Shown: piece by piece, positions 2,024-57,556 of the stretch
Numbering within the stretch: the first letter of the stretch is position 1
Layout: each line of letters opens with the position of its first letter
From: Desulfobacteraceae bacterium
GTDB lineage: Bacteria > Desulfobacterota > Desulfobacteria > Desulfobacterales > ETH-SRB1
DNA: 64,000 bases
Assembly (NCBI GenBank): GCA_030593145.1
Contig: JAUVHU010000004.1
Coordinates: 8,548-72,547 of the forward strand
Reading direction: 5' to 3'
Notes under the pieces: generated by a model
Databases searched by the model: none
Seen by the model: only the letters and a program-made list of their open reading frames with translations
Told to the model about the DNA's origin: nothing
Position numbers and translations under genes: made by a program

Positions 2024-2944
2024 ATGAAAGGTAAAATACTTAAAATATTAAAAGCCGAGCAGGGGGTTGTTTCAGGTGAAGCGATTAGTTCTGAGCTGGG
2101 CATTTCAAGGGTTTCTGTCTGGAAGCACCTGCAGAAGCTCCAGGAGTTTGGTTATAATATTGATGCATCACCTATGGGGTATCGGCTTATAAGCTCTCCT
2201 GATGTTCTTTTTCCCTGGGAATTTCCGGACAGAGAGAGAAAAATTCATTTTTTTCCTGAAGTTACTTCAACAATGGATATTGCCAGAGATTTTGCAAGGA
2301 AGGGTTGTCCTCATTTTACTGTAGTGGTTGCAGGGTGCCAGAACAGGGGCAGGGGGCGTTTGAAAAGGACATGGCTTTCTTCACAAGGGGGGCTATACTT
2401 TACCACTATACTCAGGCCGCAAATATCTCCTGTTTTAAGTTTAAGGGTTAATTTCGCGGCTTCCCTTATTCTTGCCCAAACTCTGAATAATATGTTTGAT
2501 ATTAATGCCAGGGTCAAATGGCCAAACGATATTCTGGTTGATGGCAGGAAGATATCAGGAATACTTTCGGAAATAGAGGCAGAGGCGGATATTGTTTCCT
2601 TTATTAATGTGGGCATTGGGATAAATATCAATAATGATCCCACAGATAGCGAACCAAAGGCGGTTTCGTTAAAGCAGTTATCAGGCAGCGAAATATCAAG
2701 GAAAAGGCTGCTTTCGGATTTCCTGGATAATTTTGAAAAATGTATTAACAGCAAGGCGCTGGATAATATAATCCAGGAATGGAAAAAATATACTGTGACC
2801 CTTAACCGGTATGTTAAAATTGTAACCCACCATGAGGTATTAGAAGGTATTGCCGTTGATTTGGATGAAAACGGCGCCTTGATATTGGAACTCGCTGATG
2901 GATCAACGAAAAAGGTTCTGTATGGTGATTGTTTCCATAAGTAG
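2024..2944 (+). CDS. birA: Bifunctional biotin-[acetyl-CoA-carboxylase] ligase / biotin operon repressor
   Basis: N-terminal HTH (ISRVSVWKHLQKLQEFGY), biotin-ligase glycine-rich loop GRGRLKRTW and KWPNDI motif; 306 aa. Confidence 0.9.
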   Translation: MKGKILKILKAEQGVVSGEAISSELGISRVSVWKHLQKLQEFGYNIDASPMGYRLISSPDVLFPWEFPDRERKIHFFPEVTSTMDIARDFARKGCPHFTVVVAGCQNRGRGRLKRTWLSSQGGLYFTTILRPQISPVLSLRVNFAASLILAQTLNNMFDINARVKWPNDILVDGRKISGILSEIEAEADIVSFINVGIGININNDPTDSEPKAVSLKQLSGSEISRKRLLSDFLDNFEKCINSKALDNIIQEWKKYTVTLNRYVKIVTHHEVLEGIAVDLDENGALILELADGSTKKVLYGDCFHK

Positions 2945-3075
2945 TGTCCATCCACAAATGGCATCTTTCGGCCCCTGGCGGCGTTCTCGCTTTTTTGTAA
3001 TCCTCGGAATAGGCGCAGGTTGCAAAAACGCTTGAGCCTTGCCAGGAACCAAAATCTACCACTTGTGGATGGACA
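2944..3075. repeat. GTGTCCATCC-type long hairpin element, copy 1
   Basis: Ends GTGTCCATCCACAAATGG / CCACTTGTGGATGGACA are inverted repeats and the interior is also self-complementary. A second copy lies at 44199-44340. It starts on the G of the birA TAG stop. Confidence 0.75.
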
Positions 3076-3099
3076 ATAAGTAAATTTGTAAGGTAAAAA

Positions 3100-3633
3100 A
3101 TGAACTCATCAACACAAATCCGCATGACCGCGTATGCCTCGCTTCTTGCAGCTTTAACAGCAGCAGGCGCGTATTTATCAATACCCATAGGTCCGGTTCC
3201 CATTGTCCTGCAGAACTTTTTCATACTTCTGACAGGTCTTTTATTGGGGAGCAGATGGGGGTTTGCAAGTGTCGCGATATATCTTCTGGCCGGAGCTTGC
3301 GGCTTTCCTGTATTCTCCGGCGGCACAGGAGGTTTTGGTCGTATTATTGGGCCTACCGGAGGATATCTTGTAGGGTATTTGCCGGCTGTATATATTATCG
3401 GAGCTATATCGGAAAAAACCGGACAGAAAGCTGTTTTTGATGTCATTGCAATGTGTTGCGGTTCAATAATCGTATATGTATTTGGTGTTGCCTGGCTTAA
3501 GGTATTAACAGGTATGTCCTGGTCTAACACACTGGCCGTGGGTATGTTTCCTTTTATTCCAGGTGATGCGCTGAAGATTGCCGCGGCTGTTCCGATTGCA
3601 AAGACCCTGCGGCCAATAATGAGGAAGTGGTAA
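3100..3633 (+). CDS. bioY: Biotin transporter S component BioY
   Basis: 177-aa polytopic membrane protein with the BioY-like segment FSGGTGGFGRIIGPTGGYLVGYL. It sits next to birA and ECF A/T genes. Confidence 0.85.
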   Translation: MNSSTQIRMTAYASLLAALTAAGAYLSIPIGPVPIVLQNFFILLTGLLLGSRWGFASVAIYLLAGACGFPVFSGGTGGFGRIIGPTGGYLVGYLPAVYIIGAISEKTGQKAVFDVIAMCCGSIIVYVFGVAWLKVLTGMSWSNTLAVGMFPFIPGDALKIAAAVPIAKTLRPIMRKW

Positions 3634-3635
3634 AT

Positions 3636-3993
3636 TTGATGAACTCGTAAAAAGTCATTTTTTCACCACGAAGAGCACGAAGAACACAAAGAAATTATAA
3701 AACCCAAGATTAGCGATCAGCTCTTAGCAATTAGCGGTTAGCTCTCCCGCCGTGCTCGCGCCCGCCCGCCGTGCTCGCGCCCGCCCGCCGTGCTCGCGCA
3801 CTGTCGCGGCAGGTCGCGGCAGGTATTATTTCGGGTGGTTACCAGCGATTCGATTTTCACCCATTGGGTGAAATCTTGACTTTTAGCAATATATTAAAAT
3901 TATTGTGCTAACCGCTAAAAGCTAATGGCTAATTGCTCATTTTAGTTGAAAGCATTATTTCTAATCTTCGTGTTTCTTCGTGCTCTTCGTGGT
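3636..3993. repeat. Composite ~360-bp palindromic intergenic element between bioY and bioM
   Basis: Starts with the box TTGATGAACTCGTAAAAAGTC. Outer perfect 20-bp inverted repeat ACCACGAAGAGCACGAAGAA (3665-3684 / 3974-3993). Inner imperfect arms TTAGCAATTAGCGGTTAGC / GCTAACCGCTAAAAGCTAATGGCTAATTGC. The core is GC-rich. Confidence 0.8.
3746..3823. repeat. GC-rich short tandem repeats in the core of the bioY-bioM element
   Basis: CCCGCCGTGCTCGCGCCCG (19 nt) x about 2.8, followed by GTCGCGGCAG x2. Confidence 0.8.
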
Positions 3994-4014
3994 TTATTTT
4001 TTTTGTAAGGGGAA

Positions 4015-4764
4015 ATGAATATTCTTGAAATTGAAAATATCAGTCATCGCTTTTCAGACGGCACTCTTGGTATAGACCGTATCAACCTTACGATCAGGGA
4101 AGGTGAGTTTGTTGTAATCGCAGGCCGGAACGGTTCAGGCAAGACAACCTTTTTGCGGCATTTAAACGGGCTTCTTTTGCCTGATACAGGAATAGTCAGG
4201 ATTGCAGGGGTTCCGGTGTCAGAGGACATTGTAAGAGCAAGGCAGATTGTGGGTATGGTATTTCAGGATTCCGATAGCCAGATAGTTGGTGAAACAGTGT
4301 ATGATGATGTGGTGTTCGGTCCGGAAAACCTTTGCCTGGACAAATCCGAGGTAAAAAAACGTGCGTCTGAAGCATTAAAATCAGTGGGTTTGGAAGATTT
4401 TGCCGATCAAAGGCCTTATTTGCTTTCCGGCGGAGAGAAGAGAAGGCTTGCGGTGGCAGGTGTTCTTGCCATGAAGCCCAGGGTTGTGGTTTTTGACGAG
4501 CCCTTTTCAAACCTTGATTATTCCGGGACGAAACAGGTTTTAAATCAGATTGTCAGCCTGCATAATTCAGGGCATACAATACTTGTTGCGACACACGATC
4601 TGGAAAAGATTATAGCGCTTGCCGATCGTCTGATTATAATGGAGGACGGAAGAGTTGTGATGGACGGGTTGCCTGAAGATGTTATTATGAAAGTCGAAGC
4701 GTTTGGCGTAAGAGAGCCGTGCGCTTTACGTCTGGGTATGAAGATTGAATCATGGCTGAGCTGA
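4015..4764 (+). CDS. bioM: ECF transporter ATPase (BioM/EcfA/CbiO family)
   Basis: Walker A GRNGSGKTT, signature LSGGEKRR, Walker B VVVFDEP. It lies in the bioY context. Confidence 0.85.
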   Translation: MNILEIENISHRFSDGTLGIDRINLTIREGEFVVIAGRNGSGKTTFLRHLNGLLLPDTGIVRIAGVPVSEDIVRARQIVGMVFQDSDSQIVGETVYDDVVFGPENLCLDKSEVKKRASEALKSVGLEDFADQRPYLLSGGEKRRLAVAGVLAMKPRVVVFDEPFSNLDYSGTKQVLNQIVSLHNSGHTILVATHDLEKIIALADRLIIMEDGRVVMDGLPEDVIMKVEAFGVREPCALRLGMKIESWLS

Positions 4765-5528
4765 CCCCCTTTAGTTATCGTCCAGGGGTTTCTGTCCTCC
4801 ATCTGCAGGATGTTCGATTTAAGCTTGTATTTATTGTTTTTATCAGCATTGCAAGCATGAAAGCATGTTTTATGTCCCTTTCTGTGTTATCCTTCGCACT
4901 TTTTTCAGCTATATTAATTATTCATCTCCCTTTTAAATCAATTTTAAAAGAGCTTCGTTATTTTTTTGTTTTCCTTATCTTTGTATTTGCTGCCAGGGCA
5001 CTATGCACTTCTGGAACACCGTTAATTGAATTTATGGGGATAGATGTTACCCTGCAGGGCATGTATGATGGAACACTGGTTTGCTGGCGCATGCTGTTGG
5101 TTGTATTGGTTGGATTGTTATTTGTTTCAACTACAAGGTCATCAGAAACCAGAGCCGCAATTGAGTGGTTTTTAAACCCTTTTCCGTTTATTCCGGGAAA
5201 AAGGGTTGCAACTATGATGAGTTTGATTGTTCGATTTATTCCTGTTATTTTCAAGCAGGCAAAAGAAACTTCCGATGCGCAGCGGGCGCGTGGAGTAGAA
5301 AACAGGAAAAATCCGGTCTATCGATTAATGAAGCTGGCTGTTCCGCTTATCCGTCGAACCTTTGAAAGCGCTGACAAACTTGCTGTTGCCATGGAAGCAA
5401 GATGCTATTCAGAAAAACGTATAAATACAAAGCTTTATGCGAACAGATCCGACTGGATAGCTCTTTTTTTAGTTCTTTGCCTGTGTGTCTTGCTGTCAGT
5501 AATTGACATGTTTGAATGTCTGTACTAA
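4752..5528 (+). CDS. bioN: ECF transporter transmembrane T component (BioN/EcfT/CbiQ family)
   Basis: 258-aa membrane protein that overlaps bioM by 13 nt. It has the conserved cytoplasmic-loop style motif ETSDAQRARG. Confidence 0.8.
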   Translation: MAELTPFSYRPGVSVLHLQDVRFKLVFIVFISIASMKACFMSLSVLSFALFSAILIIHLPFKSILKELRYFFVFLIFVFAARALCTSGTPLIEFMGIDVTLQGMYDGTLVCWRMLLVVLVGLLFVSTTRSSETRAAIEWFLNPFPFIPGKRVATMMSLIVRFIPVIFKQAKETSDAQRARGVENRKNPVYRLMKLAVPLIRRTFESADKLAVAMEARCYSEKRINTKLYANRSDWIALFLVLCLCVLLSVIDMFECLY

Positions 5529-17255: not shown

Positions 17256-17283
17256 TAATGATTTTTTAGACAAGCTCTTGGCG

Positions 17284-17318
17284 AATCCCGCTCAGATATA
17301 CTGAGCGGGATTTTTTTT
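17284..17318 (+). terminator. Rho-independent terminator
   Basis: AATCCCGCTCAG-ATATA-CTGAGCGGGATT followed by T8. Confidence 0.9.
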
Positions 17319-17348
17319 AGGTCATTCGCTAACCTGTAACAGACTCCC

Positions 17349-17492
17349 AGAGACCTTTGCAAAACGTCCTCTTTTGCCCAATCTCAGCGTCAGGCTCAAA
17401 TTTTAATCCTCGAAATATTCAATATATTACTCCGGTTAAAATTTTCGCCTTCCTTGAACTTGAGCAAAATTGAACATTTTTCAAAGGTCTCT
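17349..17492. repeat. Long imperfect palindrome (AGAGACCTTTGCAAAAC type)
   Basis: Left arm AGAGACCTTTGCAAAACG...GGCTCAAATTTTAATC against right arm GGTTAAAATTTTCGCC...TTTTTCAAAGGTCTCT. The CCTTTGCAAAAC word recurs at 8781 and, more loosely, at 43592. Confidence 0.7.
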
Positions 17493-17640
17493 TCCATCCC
17501 CTGTTTTTCAGCTTCTTTTCCCTTGACATTCTTCTCATCTAAACAGTAAAAAATAGTGTTTATATTCTTGTGAAAAGTCGGTTATATTTTTTACGAATTC
17601 ATCAATTATAGTTCTAATAAAAGTCATTTAGGAGATTAAT

Positions 17641-18954
17641 ATGAATCCTATTGCAAAGCAGCTCAACAACACAATTGAGACGGGCAATCCATTTCTCATG
17701 GAAATGTTGTCCGATATAGGGAAAAACCTCTTTTTTCCTAAGGGAATATTAAGCCAGAGCGCTGAAGCAAAAAAGAAGGCTCATAAATTAAACGCGACAA
17801 TAGGTATTGCTACCGAGCAGGGTAAGACCATGCGTCTTTCTTCGGTTATGGATGCGATAAACGACATCAGGGCAAAAGAGTCATTAACCTATGCGCCCTC
17901 TTATGGAATTCCTGTTTTAAGAAAGATCTGGCAGGATTCCATGTTTGAAAAAAACCCTTCTCTTACAGGTAAAAAGATAAGTCTTCCTGTTGTTGCATGC
18001 GGCATAACGCATGCGGTCAGCGTGTTCGCAGATATCTGGATAGATCCTGGTGATGTAATCATAATGCCGGATATGATGTGGGGGAATTATAATCTTATTT
18101 TGAATGTCAGAAAAGGTGGAATAATCAGCCAGTATACAATGTTTTCAGAAAAAGGAGGGTTTAATCTTCCTGCCTTTGAGGAAAAGGTTGTCAATGAGGC
18201 AAAAAATCGTGATAAAATTACAGTGCTGCTCAATTTTCCGCACAACCCCAGCGGCTATACTGTTACTGAAAAAGAAGGGTCAGCAATCGCAAAGATTTTA
18301 ACTGATGTGGCCGAAAAAGGTACAAACGTAATTGTTGTTGCCGATGATGCCTATTTTGGGCTTTTTTATGAAGATAATGCCATAAAAGAATCTCTTTTTA
18401 CGCGTTTTTGCTCCACGCACCCAAGGCTGCTTGCTGTTAAGCTGGATGGCGCCACAAAGGAAAATTATGTATGGGGTTTACGCGTCGGTTTTATTACATA
18501 CGGATGCAAGGTCGCGGGAGATTCGGAGCCTGTATATAACGCGCTTGAGAAGAAGACAGCAGGATGCGTTAGAGGTTCCATATCCAATGCTTCTCATCTT
18601 GGCCAGAGCATTATATTGAAGTCTATGCAGGACCAAAGATACCATGCAGAGAAAAAAGAAAAATATGAGATACTTAAAAGCAGGGCAAAGTGTGTAAAAG
18701 AAACCCTTTCAGATCCAAGATACAAAGATGCCTGGGATGTTTATCCGTTTAATTCAGGCTATTTTATGTGCATTAAGCTCAAAACCGTAGATGCTGAAAC
18801 ACTTCGTCTTCACCTGCTCGAAAAATACGGAGTCGGGCTTATTTCCATAGGAAAGGAAAATTTAAGAGTAGCCTTTTCCTGCTTGGAGGAAAGCGATATC
18901 AAGGAATTGTTTGATATTGTTTTGCAAGGGGTTGAAGATCTGATGGCGTCGTAA
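17641..18954 (+). CDS. PLP-dependent aminotransferase, class I/II
   Basis: 437 aa; NFPHNPSGY motif, and a candidate PLP-binding Lys in DGATKE. Confidence 0.8.
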   Translation: MNPIAKQLNNTIETGNPFLMEMLSDIGKNLFFPKGILSQSAEAKKKAHKLNATIGIATEQGKTMRLSSVMDAINDIRAKESLTYAPSYGIPVLRKIWQDSMFEKNPSLTGKKISLPVVACGITHAVSVFADIWIDPGDVIIMPDMMWGNYNLILNVRKGGIISQYTMFSEKGGFNLPAFEEKVVNEAKNRDKITVLLNFPHNPSGYTVTEKEGSAIAKILTDVAEKGTNVIVVADDAYFGLFYEDNAIKESLFTRFCSTHPRLLAVKLDGATKENYVWGLRVGFITYGCKVAGDSEPVYNALEKKTAGCVRGSISNASHLGQSIILKSMQDQRYHAEKKEKYEILKSRAKCVKETLSDPRYKDAWDVYPFNSGYFMCIKLKTVDAETLRLHLLEKYGVGLISIGKENLRVAFSCLEESDIKELFDIVLQGVEDLMAS

Positions 18955-19048
18955 AAAGCTATGTTATGCCGCTTCACGGCGCTGTAAGCGAAAACAACTT
19001 GTCAATCATAGCATGATGGTATGGTCGTAAGATCAAGGAACAAATTAA

Positions 19049-19183
19049 AAGATGAACGTCGAACATCGAACATTGAACGTTGAACATCGAATAATGAAAT
19101 CGCTCCGCTCCGTCAGTTTATAAATTGGTAGAATACCTTATTCAAAATTCGACGTTGGACGTTCGATGTTCGATGTTCATCTT
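19049..19183. repeat. GAACGTCGAACATCGAAC palindromic element, copy 1
   Basis: Arms AAGATGAACGTCGAACATCGAACATTGAACGTTGAACATCGAATAATG / ATTCGACGTTGGACGTTCGATGTTCGATGTTCATCTT. A near-identical copy lies at 57381-57552. Confidence 0.85.
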
Positions 19184-19434
19184 TTTAGTTATTTGAAAGT
19201 TCCATCTACTGCGTTGTAGTGTTTTTTCAGACACTCGGCATACTACACGTATGGCCTCGTTCCTGAAAAATTACTACGCCTTGTATATGAACCTTTTTAC
19301 TTAGCCATCAATTCAAAATTGTTCGGTTCACTTTAGTTTTGTTTTAACTTTTTTTATATTTCGTGCCTTCCTAATTTCGTGTTTTAGTGATTGTTTTTTT
19401 TGCTAAGAAACTTAAATGTTACAATTAATTTAAT

Positions 19435-43953: not shown

Positions 43954-44199
43954 ATGGAGCCAATAAAAGAGATTTATCGTCCAGAACCGGAATACAGGAC
44001 AATTACGATAAAAACCTCTGATGGATTAACAATACAGGGGAAGGTGAATCTAGCTACAAAACAGAGATTGTCTGATCTTTTTATAAAAAACGCTACGTCG
44101 TTTATTGTTATGATCGATGTGTTTTTTAAGGGTTTGCAAGGTAAAACACTTTTTATCAATAAAGATCATATTGTGTGGGTGGAGCCTGAGGACAAATAG
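43954..44199 (+). CDS. Small hypothetical protein (81 aa)
   Basis: AAGGAGGG RBS. The sequence looks beta-rich (ITIKTSDGLTIQGKVNL ... LFINKDHIVWVEP). No function assigned. Confidence 0.6.
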   Translation: MEPIKEIYRPEPEYRTITIKTSDGLTIQGKVNLATKQRLSDLFIKNATSFIVMIDVFFKGLQGKTLFINKDHIVWVEPEDK

Positions 44200-44340
44200 T
44201 GTCCATCCGGAAATGGCATCTATTGGCTCAATACCGCGTTTTCAAAACTTTTCGATCCTCGACGTAGCGCACTACGCCTCCGATCGAAAAATTCCTGCGG
44301 CCTTGTCTTGAACCAAAATCTACCATTTCCGGCCGGACAC
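44199..44340. repeat. GTGTCCATCC-type long hairpin element, copy 2
   Basis: Ends GTGTCCATCCGGAAATGG / CCATTTCCGGCCGGACAC. It shares GCATCT..GGC and GAACCAAAATCTACCA blocks with copy 1 and again starts on the G of a TAG stop. Confidence 0.75.
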
Positions 44341-44353
44341 TTAACAAGAAGAA

Positions 44354-45292
44354 TTATGCAACATCATTAAGAAACATTTCAAGACTCTTCATATTGTTCA
44401 CATTATAAATTTTACAGGGTGATTCCTTTGGCAATATTTTTTTTAATAAACCTGTGAGAACCCTTCCTGGACCAATTTCGGCAAAAATTTCAACTTCTTC
44501 CGCTAAAAGCATCTGCATGGAATCATACCATTTTACAGGGTTGCATAACTGCTTTGCCATAATCGATTTGACTTCATCAGGATTCATTTCAAAACCGGCA
44601 GTAACATTATGCACTAAAGGTCTTTTCGGCGCACTAAAATTAAATGTATCTAAAAAAACTTTAAATTCATCTTCGGCGTCTTTTATCAATTCACTATGCC
44701 ACGCTCCACTTACCTTTAACGGTATGGCTCTTGCTCCCTGGGAAGTGGCAAGTAAAGAAACCTTTTCAACCTGATCAGGAGCGCCTGTTATGACAATTTG
44801 ATGTTCGGTGTTGTGGTTAGCTACAGACACAACGCCTTCCTTTTGAACCTCGGAAACAAGTTTGAAAACAGTATCAATAGGAAGCCCGATAATGGCATGC
44901 ATCGCCCCTTTATGCTTTGTGGACTCTCTGTGCATAAGCTTTCCTCTTTTAAAAACAAGGCTTAACGCGTCCTTTTTTGAAACAATTCCAGATGCACAGA
45001 GTGCGCTGTATTCTCCAAGACTATGCCCTGCCGAAACATCCGGCATGATACCTTCTTTTTCTATCGCGGATAAAAAGGCAAGATTCACCGCTGTTACAGC
45101 AGGCTGCAAATTAACTGTCGTTGTAAGTTCTTCCATTGGGCCTTTAAAGCAGAGCCCTGATAAATTTATTTTGCAAATTTCCTCTGCCATGTCAAAAAGC
45201 TCACGAACAAAATCATATTCCTGATAAAGATCAAGACCCATGCCAACTGCCTGTGAGCCCTGACCCGGAAAAAGAAATGCTGTTTTTTTCAA
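44354..45292 (-). CDS. fabD: Malonyl-CoA:ACP transacylase
   Basis: FPGQGSQ and GHSLGEY motifs. Confidence 0.95.
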   Translation of the reverse strand: MKKTAFLFPGQGSQAVGMGLDLYQEYDFVRELFDMAEEICKINLSGLCFKGPMEELTTTVNLQPAVTAVNLAFLSAIEKEGIMPDVSAGHSLGEYSALCASGIVSKKDALSLVFKRGKLMHRESTKHKGAMHAIIGLPIDTVFKLVSEVQKEGVVSVANHNTEHQIVITGAPDQVEKVSLLATSQGARAIPLKVSGAWHSELIKDAEDEFKVFLDTFNFSAPKRPLVHNVTAGFEMNPDEVKSIMAKQLCNPVKWYDSMQMLLAEEVEIFAEIGPGRVLTGLLKKILPKESPCKIYNVNNMKSLEMFLNDVA

Positions 45293-51216: not shown

Positions 51217-51259
51217 ATAAAAATGTTATAATGAATTACGGTAGATTTCAATAATTTTT

Positions 51260-51427
51260 GTAACTATTCAGCCACAGATTCACACAGATGAACGCAGATA
51301 GGTTTAAATACAAAGAAATCACATAACATTAAGAATTATTATAATCTTGGTGACTTAGTGGCTGAATTATTACAATAAAAGAAAAATATCAGTGATGATC
51401 AGCGTAGATCTGCGGCTGAATAATTAC
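51260..51427. repeat. CAGCCAC-family composite palindrome downstream of clpB
   Basis: GTAACTATTCAGCCACAGATTCACACAGATGAACGCAGAT pairs imperfectly with ATCAGTGATGATCAGCGTAGATCTGCGGCTGAATAATTAC. The internal ATTATAATCTTGGTGACTTAGTGGCTGAA is shared with 54188 and 16591 (reverse complement). Confidence 0.8.
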
Positions 51428-57380: not shown

Positions 57381-57552
57381 AAGATGAACGTCCAACATCG
57401 AACATTGAACATCGAACGTCGAATAATGATGTCGCTCCGCTCCTCAAATTATTCCAATATCTTTTCCCATTCAACCACGCCAAGGCGTGGTTCGATATTC
57501 ATCTTTTCCCATTCAATATTCGATGTTGGACGTTCGATGTTCGATGTTCATT
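57381..57552. repeat. GAACGTCGAACATCGAAC palindromic element, copy 2, with an internal insertion
   Basis: Its arms are nearly identical to 19049-19183. The extra internal segment contains the direct repeat ATCTTTTCCCATTCAA x2 and the hairpin CCACGCCAAGGCGTGG. Confidence 0.85.
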
Positions 57553-57556
57553 TTGT

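Follow-up and report, generated by a model that had tools for sequence, protein, structure and literature searches.

Hairpin repeats at gene ends in Desulfobacterales are probably copies of a MITE-like transposon whose fold is conserved on one strand

[quoted passage not shown] We base this identity on target-site duplications, on dispersed copies and on empty sites in close relatives. An earlier note on the same sequence had offered a structured RNA, a terminator or insulator, and the recognition hairpin of a REP/MITE-type element as possible identities; duplications, dispersal and empty sites support the MITE, and the terminator had to be given up. The family unites features usually met in separate classes, namely the duplications of a transposon, covariation like that of an RNA, loop motifs common to different clades and a strict strand asymmetry.

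Copy 1 occupies 2944-3076 (133 nt) and copy 2 occupies 44199-44340 (142 nt), in both cases with the minus strand as the better-folding one and with the GTG..CAC ends of the main clade. The coordinates first given for them (2944-3075 and 44199-44340) were correct, copy 1 reaching 3076 when its last base is counted, an A where the family has C. The blocks that had been described as shared, GTGTCCATCC..AAATGGCATCT on the left and GAACCAAAATCTACCA on the right, where the shared part runs GAACCAAAATCTACCA..GGACA, are indeed identical in both copies, the centres differ, and each copy folds over its whole length into one long hairpin. The folds have z-scores of -6.7 to -9.6 against dinucleotide-preserving shuffles, none of 200 of which equalled either copy. 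Within the window the shared blocks are confined to these two places: the 25-nt left block and the 16-nt right block occur twice against 0.00 expected, and with up to three mismatches allowed the two exact copies compare with 0.87 expected matches. The compensatory change in the terminal stem was also seen as described (CCACAAATGG/CCACTTGTGG versus CCGGAAATGG/CCATTTCCGG), and the remark that C-A mismatches of the plus strand turn into G-U pairs on the minus strand agrees with predicted stabilities of -73.2 kcal/mol for the minus strand of both copies and of -62.6 and -49.9 kcal/mol for the plus strands. A covariance model built from 80 copies, which we searched over the window, the genome loci and the metagenome loci, scored copy 1 with 125.5 bits on the minus versus 57 on the plus strand and copy 2 with 127.4 versus 43.2 bits. 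Copy 1 is a deletion derivative that lacks 10 nt at the hairpin apex compared with the 142-143-nt family and with the copy at the same site in locus L136; copy 2 is an older copy, in which the terminal stem has partly decayed (GGCCGG for GGATGG).

Since both copies lie at gene ends, they could be taken for ordinary gene-end hairpins, i.e., intrinsic terminators, or for a chance pair of palindromes that belongs to no family, and copy 1 does contain a weak terminator-like match, although in a number no higher than in shuffles. This explanation, the probability of which we consider practically negligible, is refuted by the family loci, the target duplications and the empty birA-bioY sites. Homologous copies number in the hundreds in many genomes, neither hairpin end is followed by a U-tract or T-run, a terminator scan gave nothing above the shuffle expectation, and the z-scores of -7 to -10 argue against chance.

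The two hairpins are not alone. When each species was represented by a single genome, an exact 20-base pattern matched at least 119 loci, and the matches listed come from about 51 species-level assemblies. Nearly all carriers among these matches are labelled Desulfobacterales, Desulfobacteraceae or delta-proteobacteria, and they include Eth-SRB1, Eth-SRB2 and a Candidatus Desulfatibia metagenome-assembled genome (MAG). Typical copies were also found in MAGs titled outside the lineage (L025 in JAIVWA01, Gammaproteobacteria; L021, L093 and L130 in JBDRRP01, Pseudomonadota), and these titles could reflect mislabelling or binning contamination rather than transfer. For the statistics we used 100 flanked copies and for the structure alignment 80 distinct copies. 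The TGTCC and GGACA ends are 140-141 bp apart in the great majority; G precedes TGTCC in 95 and C follows GGACA in 96 of the 100 flanked copies, so that the element reads GTGTCC...GGACAC and measures 142 bp. It has terminal inverted repeats, in which GTGTCCATCC.. pairs with ..GGATGGACAC, complementarity runs over the full length, and no open reading frame (ORF) is confined to it. Short copies are internal deletions, and long copies, of 163-245 bp, have additional sequence close to the apex of the hairpin. The latter fall into two groups of loci (L039 7067-7295, L050 380-588, L106 4576-4804 and L046 1547-1793; L022 7304-7538, L109 6815-7010 and L019 ~4900-5060), with apex insertions of at least two recurring kinds, GGGAAGTCCCGTCTAGCGGGATAATATCCCGC-like units and a block TTGTTGAACAC...GTGAAATCCCGC..GCGGG; the element itself is a target for other small repeats.

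As far as could be found in Rfam, in plasmid and phage records and in the literature, the family has apparently not been described before. With Rfam 15, only tRNAs reached the gathering score in the window, and at E-values up to 10 the best hits of copy 1 and of a consensus-like copy (E 0.4-10) were all to unrelated eukaryotic families. An exact 16-mer scan of viral contigs gave 13 matches, all of them chance matches inside unrelated sequence, and blastn in distant mode against plasmid and phage collections gave none. Literature full text searched for conserved 15-mers and for MITEs in Desulfobacter* contained no description, and a look-up of ISDol1, which we take to be an insertion sequence that duplicates 6-7 bp, gave nothing informative.

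Evidence for mobility comes from the flanking hexamers, which form perfect direct repeats in 24 of the 100 flanked copies and repeats with at most one mismatch in 49, whereas shuffled pairings of left and right flanks gave perfect matches averaging 1.9 and never exceeding 7. At the variable central dinucleotide, 58 copies have a direct repeat and 7 the inverted complement, and the hexamers are therefore a duplicated target and not part of a longer inverted repeat. The target logo is the palindrome Y-T-A-R-Y-T-A-R, with TARYTA as consensus of the duplication. Well-preserved, i.e., young, copies mirror non-consensus bases at hexamer positions 1 and 6, for which reason we kept a length of 6 bp; duplications of 4, 5 or 8 bp were considered for the main clade and rejected, the 8-bp register failing at the outer positions. 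In the window, copy 1 is flanked by TAAGTA on both sides (2938-2943 and 3077-3082), and the duplication of copy 2 is decayed, with CAAATA on the left (44193-44198) versus TTAACA on the right (44341-44346) and three of six bases matching. An enzyme supplied in trans would insert the element through a staggered cut. In the GTG..CAC clade the duplicated 6 bp would come from a TA-rich palindrome, TARYTA within YTARYTAR; in the GAG..CTC sister clade the cut would duplicate 5 bp, with no preferred sequence.

The same repeats bear on the idea that the hairpins are recombination sites, either integron attC or Xer/dif-like, the bottom strand of which is recombined by a tyrosine recombinase with the repeats as crossover cores. 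Integron attC sites follow an ORF, measure 57-141 nt, have conserved boxes around a variable, covarying centre and are active only as the folded bottom strand. The element resembles them in its position right after an ORF, its size (130-142 nt), its conserved boxes with a variable centre and its fold on one strand, the bottom one, and the tandem junction GGACAC-6 bp-GTGTCC recalls a core whose inverted arms enclose a spacer of 6 bp. However, it lacks the R and L box consensus (RYYYAAC / GTTRRRY), its ends being GTGTCC and GGACAC followed by TARYTA, and single copies are dispersed beside housekeeping genes (birA/bioY, DUF6812/fabD) with no cassette array next to an integrase. Tandem copies are separated by a 6-bp spacer without cassettes, and apart from Y and R the target flanks are not conserved as arms would be. 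The hexamers vary between copies of one subfamily and match within a copy, as a duplicated target does and a fixed core does not. Overall, we regard recombination sites as extremely unlikely.

In about 8% of the copies another copy, sometimes of a different family, follows after exactly 6 bp (right flanks in L024, L025, L059, L062, L093, L097, L120, L114 and L094), as if elements had inserted again and again into the target that a resident copy had duplicated. The dynamics of the repeat thus include tandem copies with one common 6-bp spacer, nested insertions and, in L060 (JAUVVS010000019.1), an inversion between copies. At ~2420-4095 of that locus two inverted right halves flank 1.6 kb with ketopantoate-reductase-like and ACT-domain genes, named from reading their translations only; this layout resembles an inversion produced when two copies recombine, and not a composite transposon.

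Moreover, empty sites were found in close relatives. Copy 1 lies between birA (2024-2944, plus strand) and bioY (3100-3633, plus strand; Pfam BioY is recorded on orthologues), which are separated by 16 nt once the element is subtracted. L137, L134 and L135, encoding BirA proteins of 96, 94, and 91% identity, have no element between the two genes, which are 3-8 nt apart, and L136 (BirA 90% identical) carries a full-length copy at exactly the site of the window. The empty alleles are not the exact pre-insertion sequence, as both the last residue of BirA (K with the element; I, L or R without it; birA ends at 2939-2944 of the window and, for example, L134 2413-2421) and the spacer (3-8 nt versus 16 nt after subtraction) differ. 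Deletion footprints or another ancestral spacer may be the cause. A further candidate for an empty birA site, L072, was set aside with 68% identity as too divergent to inform. A second case is provided by Eth-SRB1, which is syntenic with 8.8-20.7 kb of the window at ~90% identity; a copy with the flanks TAGGGA/CAGGGA lies there at a place that the window fills with one CAGAGA only. Short-read contigs encoding BirA proteins of 95-100% identity (P0002-P0009 and P0012) are just 1.1-1.6 kb long and break inside the element, and L001 (1218-1243) stops 25 nt into it.

The insertion site also explains why both copies begin at a TAG, as had been noticed earlier. The duplication ends in TA and the element starts with G, so that every left junction reads TA/G. 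At copy 1 this gives the stop codon of birA (2942-2944), with TA from the duplicated target and G as element base 1; at copy 2, G44199 completes the stop (44197-44199) of the 81-aa DUF6812 ORF (43954-44199) after the TA of the left hexamer. The proposal that the element supplies the stop is thereby confirmed, and the abutment itself results from the preference for a target motif made of stop codons (TAA/TAG). In 15 of the 100 flanked copies the junction TAG terminates an ORF of 80 codons or more, and in 17 positions 1-3 of the duplication are the stop of such an ORF. In this way, an insertion can sit on the stop codon of a gene and leave the protein unchanged. If copy 1 and one duplicate are removed, the sequence would read ..TTC CAT AAG TAA ATT.., and the TAA of birA would have become TAG. 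As to the BirA C-termini, the comparison of which had been suggested before as a way to see whether the native stop had been replaced, the protein has 306 residues in nearly all homologues, including all of the relatives L134-L137, and the insertion would have left this length unchanged; the empty alleles do not give the exact pre-insertion state. On the other side of copy 2, a converging fabD-like gene (44354-45292, minus strand; named from reading the translation only) has its stop 13 nt away from the element's right end.

Copies touching stop codons are strongly oriented. When ORFs of 100 codons or more were taken that stop no farther than 8 nt from an end of the element, 35 copies had such an ORF at the left end and 3 at the right, so that the mRNA of the gene nearly always carries the weaker-folding strand. 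Copies whose duplications are intact already show the bias (11 versus 2), and other families show it more weakly in the same direction (17 versus 6). Relative to their neighbours overall, the copies lie in either orientation, as seen in tandem contexts (22 versus 16) and for genes within 400 nt (65 versus 59). A cause at the protein level was considered and rejected, since both ends read TA/G inward and the stop is kept either way; as the target is also palindromic, the bias cannot be put down to truncation of the protein or to the sequence of the target. Possible causes are that a near-perfect RNA duplex of 65 bp directly behind the stop is selected against, or that insertion is strand-specific.

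Which strand folds is in fact a property of the whole family. The consensus hairpin of the 80 distinct copies has 52 pairs, with 97.2% of cells paired, and double-sided changes occur in 25 of the 52 pairs, compared with 13.4 +/- 1.7 in column shuffles and 9-14 in controls with slid partners. Wobble pairs are limited almost entirely to one strand, with 547 G-U cells versus 41 A-C cells; G-U is present in at least 5 copies at 16 pair positions, A-C at none. Outside the columns fixed by the search pattern, a hand count of the pair table still gave ~183 G-U versus 33 A-C. Changes confined to a single copy show no such asymmetry (7 G-U versus 12 A-C), as expected for decay after insertion. Furthermore, a conserved 2x2 internal loop consists of tandem G.A/A.G when read on the minus strand, with U.C/C.U as its plus-strand counterpart. 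The predicted RNA stability averages -75.8 kcal/mol for the minus and -55.5 kcal/mol for the plus strand, the minus strand being the stronger one in 80 of 80 copies, by ~20 kcal/mol. Consistently, the lineages that yielded new copies may have been those whose minus strand could still fold, and the single-stranded hairpin might take part in mobilisation or retention, the folded strand being DNA during transposition or replication, or RNA.

The fold extends beyond the main clade. The covariance model revealed a third, divergent relative in the window at 17350-17491 (minus strand, 142 nt, GAGACC..GGTCTC; cmsearch 78.5 bits, E = 1.7e-17, over the whole model), with the same architecture and loop motifs as copies 1 and 2 and with the flanks TCCCA (17345-17349) and TTCCA (17492-17496), a 5-bp duplication matching at four of five positions. 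The earlier count of two copies was thus right as to those two, and had overlooked this relative as well as the target-site duplications. The third relative sits between a terminator-like hairpin (~17280-17320) and the start of a 437-aa ORF at 17641, and near-identical sequences occur at L079 3101-3242 and L133 184-326. The model also found further divergent full-length copies in the genome loci, and a metagenome scan with a pattern of loop motifs only gave at least 120 loci, with about 90 full-length matches of 140-142 nt among those listed. Two clades can be told apart: GTG..CAC elements have a 6-bp, TARYTA-like duplication, perfect at 6 bp in 13 of 39 copies and at 5 bp in none, and GAG..CTC elements a 5-bp duplication of arbitrary sequence, perfect in 11 of 27 and, in the GAGACC family, in 17 of 30 copies. 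Across families, the stems of 19 representatives have diverged and yet pair, with double changes in 27 of 38 pairs, and the motifs RATTTT, CAAGG, ACCNNAGNNATA, CGAGGA, A/GACGC and AAAAG are fixed. Together with the covariation within the family, this strongly supports the selected structure that had been suggested from two copies, and the observation made there on the minus strand also holds family-wide, as the same strand is more stable in 77 of 78 copies of the other metagenomic families.

After insertion, copies are well preserved. Between orthologous loci, the element is 99.3% identical in L029/L073 (flank 94.8%), 92.9% in L053/L098 (flank ~92%), 99.3% in L099/L123 (flank 88.3%) and 95.4% between the window and L136, where the birA flank is 89.8% identical (79% at third codon positions). 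This conservation could stem from purifying selection, from copies converting each other or from recurrent insertion at the same hot spot, the last being possible at birA because closer relatives have no element there.

Conservation and fold would also fit a functional structured RNA, acting in cis or as a small RNA, that is merely spread by transposition; we consider this unlikely, though it deserves more weight than any other alternative. Its loops RAUUUU/AAAAGA (tandem G.A), CAAGG, CGAGGA and AACGC would bind a protein or RNase, and the binding could, with a similarly modest probability, tune the stability, processing or translation of neighbouring messages, similar to ERIC of Yersinia or the Correia elements of Neisseria. 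Effects of RNase III and RNase E on MITE hairpins set a precedent (PMC10969869). Covarying stems with conserved unpaired motifs across divergent families, wobble pairs limited to one strand, orthologous copies conserved at least like coding flanks and the non-random orientation beside stop codons all speak for such an RNA. However, Rfam offers no match even at E-values up to 10, no promoter or terminator signal rises above chance, both orientations relative to neighbours are used overall, and the mRNA beside stops carries the weaker strand and not the conserved strong one. The wobble asymmetry does not single out RNA either, as G.T wobbles and tandem G.A are stable in DNA hairpins too.

Single-strand transposition by HUH enzymes, as in IS200/IS605, makes no target-site duplication, and the fixed 6- or 5-bp duplications therefore oppose another explanation, a REPIN- or REP-like element moved as single-stranded DNA by a domesticated HUH (Y1) RAYT or an IS200-IS605-type transposase. 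A likeness to REPINs is given by the whole-length hairpin, the compensatory evolution, the strand specificity and the clusters and tandems (PMC3116915), and between families it is the structure that is kept rather than the terminal sequence. Still, the arms are not short REP palindromes, and the left junction YTA/GTG (YTA/GTGYCY) has no end tag of the GTAG or CGTC type, by which REPs are defined (PMC3733652). The recurrent ORF clusters of the 8-15-kb loci contain no RAYT or Y1-like gene, which is not an exhaustive test. Overall, we regard a REPIN-like element as very unlikely.

Several observations nevertheless weigh against a conventional MITE. No transposase and no autonomous element with matching ends was detected in ~1.6 Mb of fetched loci around copies, a negative result that is weak because MAGs rarely assemble insertion sequences. 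Half of the copies, copy 2 included, have at least two mismatches between their flanking hexamers, which exceeds simple decay and may be explained by copies recombining with each other, by insertions in tandem or by the left flank being under coding constraint. It is unusual for one transposase family that clades with common internal motifs differ in termini and duplication length. The conservation of orthologous copies at or above the level of coding flanks hints at a host-level function or gene conversion and not at a purely selfish element. Finally, a classical DDE transposase acting on double-stranded DNA predicts neither covariation of the central stem nor strand asymmetry.

Among the candidates for the partner element or enzyme, orphan ends turned out to be truncated copies, L209 a copy swollen by nested insertions, and the ORF clusters that recur in the neighbourhood of copies histidine kinases, ABC ATPases and similar genes. 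A regular expression of the loop motifs, run on the fetched loci for orphan arms, was too loose to be useful.

More speculatively, the elements could represent a new kind of mobile element, the folded minus strand of which is recognised by its shape and its conserved internal loops, not by its terminal sequence, and which yet makes a fixed 5- or 6-bp staggered cut; we think this rather improbable. Such a system would be, with the same reservation, a hybrid of hairpin-recognising systems (attC/IntI, IS200-IS605, REPIN/RAYT) and duplication-making transposases. If this were true, insertion that is strand-specific relative to transcription might explain the 35:3 orientation at stops. In any case, the strand-specific fold, the loops common to the clades and the orientation rule at stop codons are unusual enough to leave a little room for a new mechanism of mobilisation.

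Returning to the MITE-like transposon, we find it most comparable to ERIC and Correia elements in its presumed way of working and to REPINs in its structure-preserving evolution. Like ERIC (IRU), a 127-bp imperfect palindrome, it is small (~130-140 bp), palindromic over its whole length and without an ORF, occurs dispersed in transcribed intergenic regions and often at gene 3' ends, has long variants with internal insertions, and lacks a known mobilising enzyme. In Yersinia, ERIC is reported to have orientation-dependent effects on mRNA (PMC10969869). The two have no sequence similarity and belong to different phyla, and the element described here differs further in its 6- or 5-bp duplication, its TARYTA target, its position directly at stop codons, and the quantified strand asymmetry and covariation between families. 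Correia elements have a TA-only duplication, 26-bp terminal repeats and a non-palindromic core with promoter and IHF sites, whereas in the Desulfobacterales element the whole sequence is a hairpin, the duplication is 6 bp, and no promoter signal was found above chance. Both are short MITEs with inverted ends and a TA-containing target, with the transposase not known, and transcripts of Correia/NEMIS in Neisseria fold into hairpins that RNase III cleaves (PMC10969869). REPINs likewise are hairpin-forming and non-autonomous, preserve their single-strand fold, form clusters and tandems and insert beside or into each other (PMC3116915), but consist of two short REP palindromes, have a flanking single-copy RAYT gene and are thought to be moved by HUH enzymes without target duplication. 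QMITE2 of Coxiella burnetii, flanked by 7-9-bp direct repeats, lies mainly in 3' untranslated regions and forms a very stable transcript hairpin (PMC10969869). It is larger (113-145-bp core plus 23-29-bp terminal repeats) and unrelated in sequence and host, and neither a stop-codon junction nor strand asymmetry is described for it.

The family is abundant in Desulfobacterales, including Eth-SRB1 and Eth-SRB2, syntrophic partners of alkane-oxidising archaea. As it breaks short-read assemblies, sits inside operons such as birA-bioY and rewrites stop and last codons, the element should be masked or annotated in these genomes and MAGs. It also offers a system for asking why many bacterial MITEs are whole-length hairpins, and whether the hairpin has its role in transposition or in host RNA metabolism.

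Apart from the three relatives, the window contains further inverted repeats. Those at 19039-19193 and 57381-57554 are long, with GAACATCGAAC/GAACGTTGAAC-type units and arms of 63 and 44 nt that are 78-80% complementary, and look like another repeat family of different composition. The repeat at 51253-51427 has 46-nt arms and is probably yet another dispersed repeat; its part 51253-51315 is 97% identical to a non-syntenic stretch of Eth-SRB1 (L064 6834-6896). A TTAGC/GCTAA-rich inverted repeat with 37-nt arms lies at 3706-3943, in the 380-nt gap between bioY and a gene for an ABC-transporter ATPase (4015-4764).

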